Origin: a virus
Taxonomy: Duplodnaviria; Heunggongvirae; Uroviricota; Caudoviricetes
Reading direction: 5' to 3' (one strand)
DNA length: 42,396 nt
Virus record (IMG/VR): IMGVR_UViG_2861064056_000003
Shown: positions 1,864 to 3,660 of the stretch, in pieces
How positions within the stretch are numbered: the first letter of the stretch is position 1
Layout: each line of letters begins with the position of its first letter
Notes under the pieces: model-generated
Seen by the model: only the letters and a program-made list of their open reading frames with translations
Databases searched by the model: none
What the model was told of the DNA's origin: nothing
Translations under genes and position numbers: made by a program

Positions 1864-3500
1864 CCCGCCGCAGCTGGTTTATCAAACATCGCGCCACGAT
1901 TGTACGAACTCGCAGCCTGTCTCAGTCCATCGAGCACCCCCGACGCTGCAGATTGTTGTATTGACTGCGGATCTGTCGCACCGACAATATTGATTTCGAT
2001 TTTATTGTTTTGCTCCGGCGCAGGTGTCGAGACTGCCTGCTTCAACGTATCAATATTTAACGTCGACGAATCCAGTGCTGCAGGCGCGGTATTTTTATTT
2101 ACCATCCCGGATAATGGATTAACAAACGCGAGCATTGATTCTGCCTGAGATTTTGCCTGTTCTTGCCGTTCTGGATGCCGCATATTTTCGACAGCCTCTT
2201 CGGCTTTTGCCTTCGCAATATTATCAGCAGTCAATCCAGCGTTCGGTGAATATTTACCTCCCGAATCCATAAACTCTTGATATGCCCGATTATATTCGTC
2301 ATTATAAGTTTTCTGTTCTTCATCTGATTTTTCATCCGGAATAAGCCACTCCAGTTTCTTTACGACAGCCCATATAATCTTCCCGAATTTGACGCAACCT
2401 TCTCCAAAATTGACGATGCCATCCCACATTTTTTTCATATTTTCTGGTTTTACCCACTCAGTAATTGTGCTGACAAAACCACCCTGATTATCCTTAAACC
2501 AGGATGTAAATGTTTCACGTACTGAGTCAAACGTCGGCGCGAGTTCCCCCCCGATTTTACCGAGTGTATCTGCAAGTCCCGACGTAATAGAGCCCCACAG
2601 ATTTGTCACTGATACATGCGCACGCGCCGCCCCTTCCGCACCCTCTTTTGTTAACAAATTCGACTTTTGCGCGTCAGACATTGTCTGTTCCCAGCTTTTA
2701 CCCGTCGCCTTCATATACGTCATGATCTTATTAGCCTCGCCCCCCATGAGCTGGTCAGCGAGGCTCGCCGCTTGCTTCTCATCTTTCATTTCAGAGATGC
2801 GACGCATAACCTCATTAAACTGTTTTTCCCGATCCCAGCCAGCCATTCGTTTTTTCGTCAGGCCAATTTGAAATAACATGGGATTCAGGCTTTTTTCGTT
2901 TCCGATTTCGCCGATTTTATTTGTAAGTTCTTCAGACAAATCCCCGATATTTTCGCCGTTCAGGCCCGCGGCTTTACCAATATTTTCCCACGCAGCGTAT
3001 TTTTCGACGCCAACGCCGTAGGACTTCGCCAGACCGAGTTTTTCTGACGTCTCTGCATTCATTGCCAGCGCACCAGCTGCAGCACCGCCAATGAGCCCTG
3101 CCGCGCCAAGTGTCCCCCATTTGATACCCCGCCCCGTAGCCCTCACCGCACCTGCGGCGGCTCGTCCGCCCCATTTTGCAGCTCCTTTTGCGCGACCCGT
3201 CCACTTCTCCAGCCGCTGTTTTTTAGCAAGTTGAGTATTCAGCGCCTCCTGGTCCTGCGTTGTCGCTTTTATTCGACGGTCCAGCTTTTGATACTGAGCA
3301 GATAAATCAGAAACGTCTTTACCTGCCAGTTTCATTGCTGCGATTTTGTCTTTTAATTTATCCTGACTTTTCGTTAATTTCCCGACAGTAGACGACGTCT
3401 GCCGAATCGCATCATTGAGTTCTGTTGTACCGCGACGAAACGACGGGTCTATTCGCCCACCGAATACAACCTGCGTTTTAAAGTTTTGAGAAATAGCCAT
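1860..3500 (-). CDS. Tail tape measure protein (gpT-like)
   Basis: 546 aa, Ala/Gly-rich coiled-coil-like sequence; after the tube and E genes as in P2. Confidence 0.7.
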   Translation of the reverse strand: MAISQNFKTQVVFGGRIDPSFRRGTTELNDAIRQTSSTVGKLTKSQDKLKDKIAAMKLAGKDVSDLSAQYQKLDRRIKATTQDQEALNTQLAKKQRLEKWTGRAKGAAKWGGRAAAGAVRATGRGIKWGTLGAAGLIGGAAAGALAMNAETSEKLGLAKSYGVGVEKYAAWENIGKAAGLNGENIGDLSEELTNKIGEIGNEKSLNPMLFQIGLTKKRMAGWDREKQFNEVMRRISEMKDEKQAASLADQLMGGEANKIMTYMKATGKSWEQTMSDAQKSNLLTKEGAEGAARAHVSVTNLWGSITSGLADTLGKIGGELAPTFDSVRETFTSWFKDNQGGFVSTITEWVKPENMKKMWDGIVNFGEGCVKFGKIIWAVVKKLEWLIPDEKSDEEQKTYNDEYNRAYQEFMDSGGKYSPNAGLTADNIAKAKAEEAVENMRHPERQEQAKSQAESMLAFVNPLSGMVNKNTAPAALDSSTLNIDTLKQAVSTPAPEQNNKIEINIVGATDPQSIQQSAASGVLDGLRQAASSYNRGAMFDKPAAAG

Positions 3501-3660
3501 CGATTTTCATGACCTCGTTTACATAGAAATTAAAAACCCGGTACGGCAGGTCCATTTGCGTATCGGGCGGGATGGCAAGTTTTTTCGCAATAAACGGAAT
3601 CAGAATAACTATATCTGATGTCGGTCTTTCGGAGGCTTTACCAGTTCGTTAAATGCGGCC
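3478..3660 (-). other. Putative -1 frameshift extension of the tail chaperone (E+E' type)
   Basis: The -1 frame relative to the E-like gene is open for ~52 codons (3649 down to 3481, stop at 3478-3480) and overlaps the tape measure start. Confidence 0.35.

Follow-up and report, generated by a model that had tools for sequence, protein, structure and literature searches.

A probable tail chaperone frameshift at a non-canonical slip site in an Escherichia coli prophage

The chaperone gene and its overlapping -1 frame

The DNA considered in this work, which we call the window, is the whole viral record IMGVR_UViG_2861064056_000003 (42,396 nucleotides, nt), and all positions given below refer to this entire stretch. 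Within its tail region, where the genes in question are without exception encoded on the minus strand, an E-like tail assembly chaperone gene (3609..3890) of 93 amino acids (aa) is found between the genes for the tail tube and the tape measure, and its end overlaps an open reading frame (ORF) in the -1 frame that corresponds in position to the E' extension of phage P2. The chaperone gene, which encodes the short, zero-frame product, is recognized by the profile PF10109 Phage_TAC_7 (chaperones E, 41, and 14) with 57.2 bits (E = 1.7e-15) over profile positions 1-78 of 79, a score that exceeds the gathering threshold of 25 bits, as well as by phrog_166, "tail protein" (1.8e-25); its RefSeq name is "phage tail assembly protein" (WP_000444667.1). 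The preceding gene, 3903..4415, encodes an FII-like tube protein of 170 aa (PF04985 Phage_tube, 1.5e-21), and the following one, 1860..3500, the tape measure protein of 546 aa. The latter ORF has no Pfam match and its assignment consequently rests, besides its position and size, on synteny with gene T of P2. The whole order, from the tail sheath (4433-5935, minus strand, PF04984 and PF17482) through tube, PF10109 chaperone, tape measure, gpU, and gpX to a gpD-like gene, is that of P2 (F-E-T-U-D). In RefSeq, the chaperone and the tape measure are annotated while the 108 nt between them are left empty, and a frameshift product is absent from both the RefSeq and the GenBank annotation.

The -1 frame is open from 3648 to 3478 on the minus strand, with 56 codons followed by a TAA at 3480-3478. 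On its upstream side it is closed by another TAA (3649..3651), which bounds the stretch where a shift could occur to at most 13 codons, from AAC (3648) to the stop codon TAG of the E-like gene (3611-3609). In several relatives an equivalent upstream stop, TGA, is found at a distance of just two -1-frame codons from the AAA in the heptamer G GTA AAG (3636..3642, minus strand), which is the only slippery-like motif in this shift window and is examined in depth below. A previous reading of the window, made from the sequence only, had proposed a -1 frameshift here with coordinates and a heptamer that prove correct, and had the frame overlapping the start of the tape measure, as indeed it does: It ends 23 nt after the ATG at 3500. 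The same reading placed the end of the open frame about 52 codons past the stop of the E-like gene; the frame is open as described, while the distance has to be corrected to 44 codons beyond that stop, the figure of 52 being the distance from the slip site. The tape measure gene is in the reading frame of the E-like gene and has its initial 23 nt in common with the end of E'. We considered also that the -1 ORF might be an N-terminal extension of the tape measure, a possibility that is ruled out by the tape measure lying in the zero frame, where several stops intervene.

How unusual is such an open frame? The stop density in the -1 frame of the structural genes of the window is 0.069 per codon, from which the probability of a frame remaining open for at least 56 codons is about 0.018, and runs as long as 56 codons account for 5 of the 389 found in the -1 frame of these genes. 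A different null, taken from the openness of the -1 frame at other gene ends, was uninformative, because in a packed operon the next gene often occupies that frame, and it was replaced by the within-gene stop density. An open -1 frame of this length is hence no more than mildly unusual in a single sequence, suggestive but not decisive; its significance comes from conservation.

The part of E' that would be translated after a slip at the heptamer (3636-3481) comprises 52 aa, ASERPTSDIVILIPFIAKKLAIPPDTQMDLPYRVFNFYVNEVMKIDGYFSKL, and includes the peptides PTSDIVILIPFIAK, LAIPPDTQMDLPYR, and VFNFYVNEVMK. The predicted E+E' fusion, join(3890..3636, 3636..3478) on the minus strand with base 3636 read twice, would have 137 aa, namely residues 1-85 of E (...AAFNELVK) followed by ASERPTSDIV...GYFSKL. 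Two database proteins of 137 aa, P0004 and P0005, are exactly this fusion, the two frames being joined by assembly indels next to the slip site. More generally, public assemblies with one-base indels at or near the slip region (P0003, P0004, P0005, and P0006) show either 137-aa E-E' fusions or 119-aa fusions to the +1 frame; these indels may be sequencing errors or real mutants. A terminator-like hairpin followed by a run of T (GGACCTGCCGTACCGGGTTT TTAATTTC; 3534-3553, minus strand) lies inside the coding sequence of E', at the PYRVFNF codons, and is probably a by-product of that coding sequence, since its arms are not kept in relatives.

Conservation, selection, and the slip site

Protein and locus searches retrieved the clade to which the window belongs, here called clade A, with 28 loci whose E proteins show 53-100% identity; they were found in E. 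coli, Salmonella, E. whittamii, and viral contigs. Conservation of the overlap frame in relatives, which the sequence-only reading had named as a check, is complete: The -1 frame runs without a stop over 55-56 codons in 28 of 28 loci, and wherever the end point was measured (9 of 9 loci) it lies exactly 23 nt into the tape measure gene, the ATG of which is kept at +142 from the heptamer in all relatives. The E' peptides of the clade are well conserved, following the consensus DI[IV]IL.P[FY]...K.L.IPP..Q...PYRVFNFYV.E...K..GYF.

The coding test was conducted on the 105 nt between the stop of the E-like gene and the start of the tape measure, a region that could be aligned without gaps. The mean ratio of nonsynonymous to synonymous polymorphism (pN/pS) over this "intergenic" DNA is 0.28 in the -1 frame, versus 1.09 in the frame of E and 1.47 in the +1 frame, and the variable columns at codon positions 1, 2, and 3 of the -1 frame are 18, 12, and 31 of 35 each, the same pattern that is seen in the bodies of the E and tape measure genes. 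From the frame-specific pN/pS and the pattern of codon positions it follows that the DNA annotated as intergenic is protein-coding in the -1 frame; it evolves as coding sequence, under purifying selection in that frame only. The candidate frameshift of the E+E' type thus finds support in the gene order, in a -1 frame conserved in every relative and in selection restricted to that frame.

This evidence needs to be set against the possibility that there is no functional recoding at all, the -1 frame being open by chance or owing to other constraints. One could invoke for it the modest improbability of a 56-codon open frame in one sequence (P about 0.02) and an extension that belongs to no database family, yet frame-specific purifying selection excludes both chance and a non-coding constraint. 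Moreover, the frame is open in all 60 unique extension peptides, 16 of clade A and 44 of a sister clade, clade B, to be presented below, and the extensions of the two clades are homologous despite an identity of 40-45% between their E proteins. We regard the absence of recoding as extremely improbable.

If the -1 ORF is coding, might it be an independent small gene with a canonical or non-canonical start of its own? It is true that gene callers now and then predict a gene for its distal part, starting at an internal ATG, as in P0092 (40 aa) and in QXN68736.1 of phage yong2 (39 aa). Yet in 6 of the 7 diverged versions (the window and 5 of 6 diverged relatives), the first 30 codons of the -1 frame, a segment that takes in the conserved N-terminal half, contain no ATG, GTG, or TTG. 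The internal starts are not conserved, and conservation of the peptide sets in directly behind the slip site (DI[IV]IL.P[FY]...). A fixed non-canonical start is contradicted by the Ile codons near the beginning, which vary among ATA, ATT, and ATC. The -1 ORF has no independent start, and an independent gene would leave the invariance of the heptamer unexplained; we hold this explanation to be quite improbable.

Turning to the heptamer, G GTA AAG is present in 28 of 28 clade A loci that were extracted without reference to the motif. Among the 23 unique clade A versions, which have a median pairwise nucleotide identity of 67%, TGGTAAAG constitutes the longest invariant run in the 448 nt that extend from the start of E into the tape measure, and it freezes three consecutive third-codon positions, while only 1 of the 82 other third positions of E is invariant. 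This statistic is anchored on the motif itself; motif-independent extractions yielded no clade A member lacking it. The codons at its sides vary, being CTG or ATG before and CCT, CCC, CCG, ATC, GTC, GAC, CAC, ACG, or GCC after, and no other conserved slippery motif is present in the shift window among clade A loci. The sequence-only reading had called the heptamer imperfect and the site unresolved. It is non-canonical, as stated, but its position no longer appears uncertain, since G GTA AAG belongs to the most conserved nucleotide string of the region, and we conclude from this invariance that the -1 shift is to be placed at G_GUA_AAG (3642-3636). The zero-frame codons are GUA (Val84) and AAG (Lys85), which after slippage would pair as GGU and AAA.

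The properties of such a site can be evaluated on the basis of previous work in E. coli, in which A_AAG and U_UUY are the two most shift-prone tetramers and X_XXA_AAG the most shift-prone heptamers (PMC4066793; PMC5009743). The single tRNA-Lys of this organism pairs less well with AAG than with AAA (PMC4066793; PMC5009743), which is why A_AAG is, among the tetramers, the one that shifts most readily. P-site tRNAs of greater wobble capacity produce more slippage (PMC5009743 section 31) and CC is the most shift-prone 3' context in E. coli tests (PMC5009743); the heptamer of the window carries CC directly 3'. Once it has slipped by -1, tRNA-Val in the P site retains two pairs on GGU, the first and the third.

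Two other ways of reaching the -1 frame have been weighed. The shift could take place elsewhere in the 13-codon overlap, the allowed interval of which spans from AAC (3648) to TAG (3609), or it could arise by slippage of peptidyl-tRNA-Lys on A_AAG in the P site, with an empty A site, instead of a tandem slip. P-site slippage models are established (PMC5009743), and a slip of this type would yield the same protein. For a different position, instead, no other motif of the overlap is conserved: CCG AAA GAC is replaced in relatives by CCG ACC GAC, CCG GAA GAT, and others, and is not in a slippery register. Either variant seems to us unlikely. The remaining alternative is that the long form derives from slippage of the RNA polymerase, producing an indel in the mRNA, rather than from the ribosome. 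Productive transcriptional slippage requires longer homopolymers, typically at least 6-9 bases. The shift window holds at most AAA. That the heptamer has a run of three A and the sister clade a run of five T could be taken in favor of this mechanism, as could the fact that transcriptional slippage replaces ribosomal frameshifting in some systems (PMC5009743). Nevertheless, the G conserved after AAA (always AAG, never AAA) fits the tRNA-Lys rule for ribosomal slippage (PMC4066793), and slippage of the polymerase is accordingly given very little credence here.

Known systems and the sister clade B

The closest parallel to the system of the window is the E/E+E' pair of P2 (Christie et al. 2002, cited in PMC5009743), with which it has in common the operon order (FI, FII, E, T, U, D), the PF10109 family of the short product, and an extension of about 50 aa ending just inside the T or tape measure gene. 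According to the annotation of P2 (NC_001895), the shift occurs at codon 85/86 of 91, the product has 142 aa and the overlap with T is 8 nt; the corresponding values here are codon 85 of 93, 137 aa, and 23 nt. One difference is the slip site, for which P2 has the canonical U_UUU_UUG and the window G_GUA_AAG, located two columns further downstream in the alignment; another is the nature of the extension. While E' of P2 matches PF06528 (Phage_P2_GpE) with 2.2e-22, hmmscan gave no match to this profile at E up to 10 for the extensions of the window and nine relatives, and in profile-profile comparison by hhalign the probability stays below 4%. P2-type E' proteins are named "GpE family phage tail protein" by PGAP, whereas the extension here is unannotated. 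The alignment with P2 E' that the sequence-only reading had suggested as a test hence came out negative, no similarity being detectable by either method, and the extension finds its match in the sister clade instead. Of the two outcomes that, according to that reading, would refute the proposal, one has in this way come about by half. A weak alignment to the GpE profile sets IPPD of the window on WPPSE of P2. Membership of the GpE family is not borne out, while the positional and functional equivalence to P2 E' stands.

The lambda pair G/GT (Levin et al. 1993; Xu, Hendrix and Duda 2004, 2013, 2014, as cited in PMC5009743) likewise precedes the tape measure and likewise has A_AAG read by tRNA-Lys in the A site, its heptamer G_GGA_AAG being one base apart from G_GUA_AAG. 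Lambda, however, is a siphovirus with a G protein of another family, and its P-site tRNA re-pairs perfectly (GGA to GGG), as opposed to the two pairs of three kept here. Non-canonical -1 sites are known in bacterial systems, including G_GUU_UUC of T7 gene 10, A_CGA_AAG of Bacillus subtilis cdd, and G_CGA_AAG of IS1222 (PMC5009743 section 31). The first shows the same imperfect G_GU re-pairing in the P site but belongs to a capsid gene; the other two share the NNA_AAG slip of tRNA-Lys but belong to a cellular gene and a transposase, respectively. Burkholderia phage Mica and Achromobacter phage Mano have annotated "tape measure chaperone frameshift products" with PF10109-type chaperones about 30% identical to that of the window, an identical gene order, and a -1 extension that runs up to the start of the tape measure; their sites, A_AAU_UUU in Mica and G_GGU_UUU in Mano, differ from ours in being canonical and located at a conserved Phe codon. 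Hidden Markov models (HMMs) of the extension found no matches in the six-frame segments of P2, Mica, and Mano, and literature searches for GGTAAAG or G_GUA_AAG returned unrelated papers only, without finding G_GUA_AAG in a tail chaperone gene.

Relatives of the extension are scarce also in the protein databases. Comparison with 50,697 phage records by tblastn retrieved only the four identical E. coli phage records; a word-indexed search of 5.8 billion proteins found one match, a mis-called ORF of 71 aa; among 1.84 billion representatives scanned in full with HMMER there were a single true fragment, of 40 aa (P0092), and one spurious repeat protein; and a sequence search of the PDB produced nothing relevant.

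Clade B, which includes Hafnia phage yong2, Citrobacter phage Chris1, and many enterobacterial prophages (L002, L003, L007-L017, L046-L106; 44 unique versions), has E proteins with about 40-48% identity to that of the window, the same layout, and an equally unannotated frameshift. Its extension, ...IRFLGRRLHFPM.DYLDMPFS.F.DFL.DE.E..., aligns without gaps to that of clade A; hhalign between the two gives a probability of 91% (P = 9e-7) over 40 columns, and an HMM built exclusively from clade B places the -1 ORF of the window first among 1193 six-frame segments (E = 0.059). Judged from these alignments, the two extensions are homologous. The annotation of yong2 lists the distal portion of this extension on its own, as a "hypothetical protein" of 39 aa (QXN68736.1). 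One clade B locus, L058 (IMGVR_UViG_2851654087_000003), has its -1 extension broken midway (...IRFLGGACIFPW...), leaving a 50-codon ORF with an unrelated tail, and is either a degenerate copy or an assembly error.

In place of G_GUA_AAG, clade B has the invariant motif AAY GUU UUU AUG (in DNA, AAY GTT TTT ATG CT) with the tetramer U_UUU, which belongs to the second-best tetramer class in E. coli (PMC4066793). In the alignment of the chaperones, the Phe slip codon of this motif falls in the same column as those of P2 (U_UUU_UUG), Mica (A_AAU_UUU), and Mano (G_GGU_UUU). Clade A proteins have Leu or Met in this column, and their slip codon, for Lys, is located two columns downstream. In evolutionary terms, the simplest reading of this arrangement is that the slip site was relocated in clade A from the ancestral Phe column. 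A more detailed version of this scenario appears to us somewhat favored by the comparisons: the site of clade A would have moved from the ancestral Phe codon (UUU) to G_GUA_AAG two codons downstream, combining a P site of T7 gene 10 type with a tRNA-Lys slip of lambda type, and would work without a conserved strong stimulator, feeding a family of extensions which is distinct from GpE and nearly absent from databases.

Proposed decoding and its biological meaning

Taken together, the locus presents all the features that define a tail chaperone -1 frameshift pair at the sequence level, namely an ORF pair between tube and tape measure, a -1 overlap without a start of its own, a conserved slippery sequence, and conserved coding. 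On these grounds we consider it quite probable that the chaperone gene is decoded in two ways, a -1 slip at G_GUA_AAG giving the 137-aa E+E'. Most ribosomes would stop at the TAG (3611-3609) and release the 93-aa chaperone, while a minority would slip by -1 on G_GUA_AAG (3642-3636), the single tRNA-Lys of E. coli shifting from AAG to the fully cognate AAA and tRNA-Val from GUA to GGU with two of its three pairs kept. The slipped ribosomes would then read 52 more codons and stop 23 nt inside the tape measure gene. Following the example of lambda G/GT and P2 E/E+E', the N-terminal part common to both products would coat the tape measure protein, and tube subunits would be brought in by the rare C-terminal extension; tail assembly would then be governed by the fixed low ratio that results from the slip. 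From the model for lambda gpGT (PMC5009743), the binding partner of the extension would be the tube protein encoded at 3903..4415. The sequences themselves show the open frame, its conservation, the selection restricted to it, its missing start, and the invariance of the heptamer; we infer the slipping, its efficiency, and these binding roles.

Several points weigh against the decoding just proposed. The fusion protein E+E' is a prediction deduced from the DNA. The heptamer does not follow the canonical X_XXY_YYZ: its A-site part, A_AAG, conforms, while the P-site change from GUA to GGU is mismatched at the second position. The extension, and the fusion in its extension part, have no match in Pfam, PHROGs, or NCBIfam, and hhalign of the clade A, clade B, and combined alignments versus 49 GpE sequences gives probabilities of 0.7-3.8%, so that the extension is not detectably a P2 GpE. 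Furthermore, no conserved stimulatory RNA structure has been found, and the efficiency of slippage could be very low in consequence; in reporter assays, tetramers without a stimulator gave 0.147% frameshifting versus a background of 0.112%, and a strong pseudoknot was required to obtain 5.6% (PMC4066793).

Candidate stimulators of weak type are nonetheless present on both sides of the slip site. A GGAGG resembling a Shine-Dalgarno sequence (3659..3663, minus strand) lies 16 nt upstream of the heptamer in 20 of the 23 unique clade A versions and is absent in L024, L038, and L039; it is neither universal nor optimally spaced. Sharma et al. 2014 (PMC4066793) searched distances of 6-17 nt, and 16 nt falls at the outer edge of these. 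On the downstream side, an irregular hairpin (3585..3633, minus strand), which has no covariation support, starts 2 nt past the slip site. The 60-nt fold containing it has a minimum free energy of -11.2 kcal/mol with a z-score of about -1.4, the 83-nt fold has a z-score of -1.98, and the scores of individual sequences among the versions range from -4.4 to +0.5. The RNAalifold consensus of the downstream 110 nt reaches only -4.8 kcal/mol, with no covariation, and a scan of 3350-3950 produced no Rfam match. A CGGAA/UUCCG stem that recurs in the single-sequence folds of several relatives was rejected after failing both the covariation and the shuffle test; in a fixed register, the 12-bp stem is paired in 70.8% of the cells, the number of compensatory pairs is 0, and shuffled alignments do equally well in 403 of 500 cases. 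A low efficiency of slippage would, in any case, be compatible with the ratio of roughly 30:1 that has been measured for lambda G to GT (PMC5009743).

A further reservation originates from the prophage in which the system resides. The gpD-like gene for the baseplate hub (272-1045, minus strand) is split near position 277 or thereabouts by one extra base, CCTTG in the window versus CCTG in E. coli AR_0089. In AR_0089 and some other strains the gene is intact, encoding 347 aa, and is named "contractile injection system protein, VgrG/Pvc8 family"; the type of the window, which is found also in JJ1886 and O25b:H4-ST131, has an ORF of 257 aa and an out-of-frame remainder (stretch 1-271), and is present at 99% identity or more in 428 of 455 matching genomes. 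This copy of the prophage is probably tail-defective because of the 1-nt insertion, and its tail module being possibly defective, the frameshift signal observed here may be a recent relic.

The prophage region is identical or near-identical in 452 of 5426 complete E. coli genomes (about 8%) and in four records of the type "Escherichia phage vB_EcoM-...R", and the ST131 lineage (JJ1886, O25b:H4 strains) is among the carriers. In strain 4/1-1 it is a prophage of ~42 kb inserted between yecA and the tRNA-Leu/Cys/Gly cluster adjoining pgsA, with the integrase at the tRNA end. Its organization is mosaic, with lambda-like head genes (terminase, gpW, portal, S49 protease, decoration protein, capsid, FI), a Q antiterminator, and a lysis cassette combined with a P2-like contractile tail. 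Several relatives (L018-L020, L024, L025) carry on the opposite strand between gpU and gpX a gene of 77-80 aa with PF14373 (Imm_superinfect); the corresponding gap of the window (1274-1434) has 161 nt only, with a hydrophobic ORF of 44 aa (1293-1427, plus strand) that has no Pfam match.

What does the proposed frameshift mean for the biology of these phages? The system very probably represents a new, unannotated case of textbook tail-chaperone frameshifting in an E. coli prophage, leaving the general picture of tail assembly unchanged, with three aspects that are modestly out of the ordinary, namely the slip site G_GUA_AAG, its apparent relocation, and a family of extensions missing from domain and protein databases. 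A gap of 108 nt that is annotated as intergenic would hold a tail assembly product of the essential type, for whose extension peptide the billions of proteins in databases contain one or two true relatives. This extension is missed by frameshift finders limited to X_XXY_YYZ as well as by the GpE model of PGAP. To the short list of non-canonical bacterial -1 sites the present analysis adds a conserved, naturally selected G_GUA_AAG together with the GUU_UUU site of its sister clade, and both would be convenient test cases for frameshifting by a near-hexanucleotide motif without a strong stimulator. If the reading proposed here is true, these phages offer a natural example of slip-site turnover under conserved function, in which a near-hexanucleotide site is used productively by a phage.

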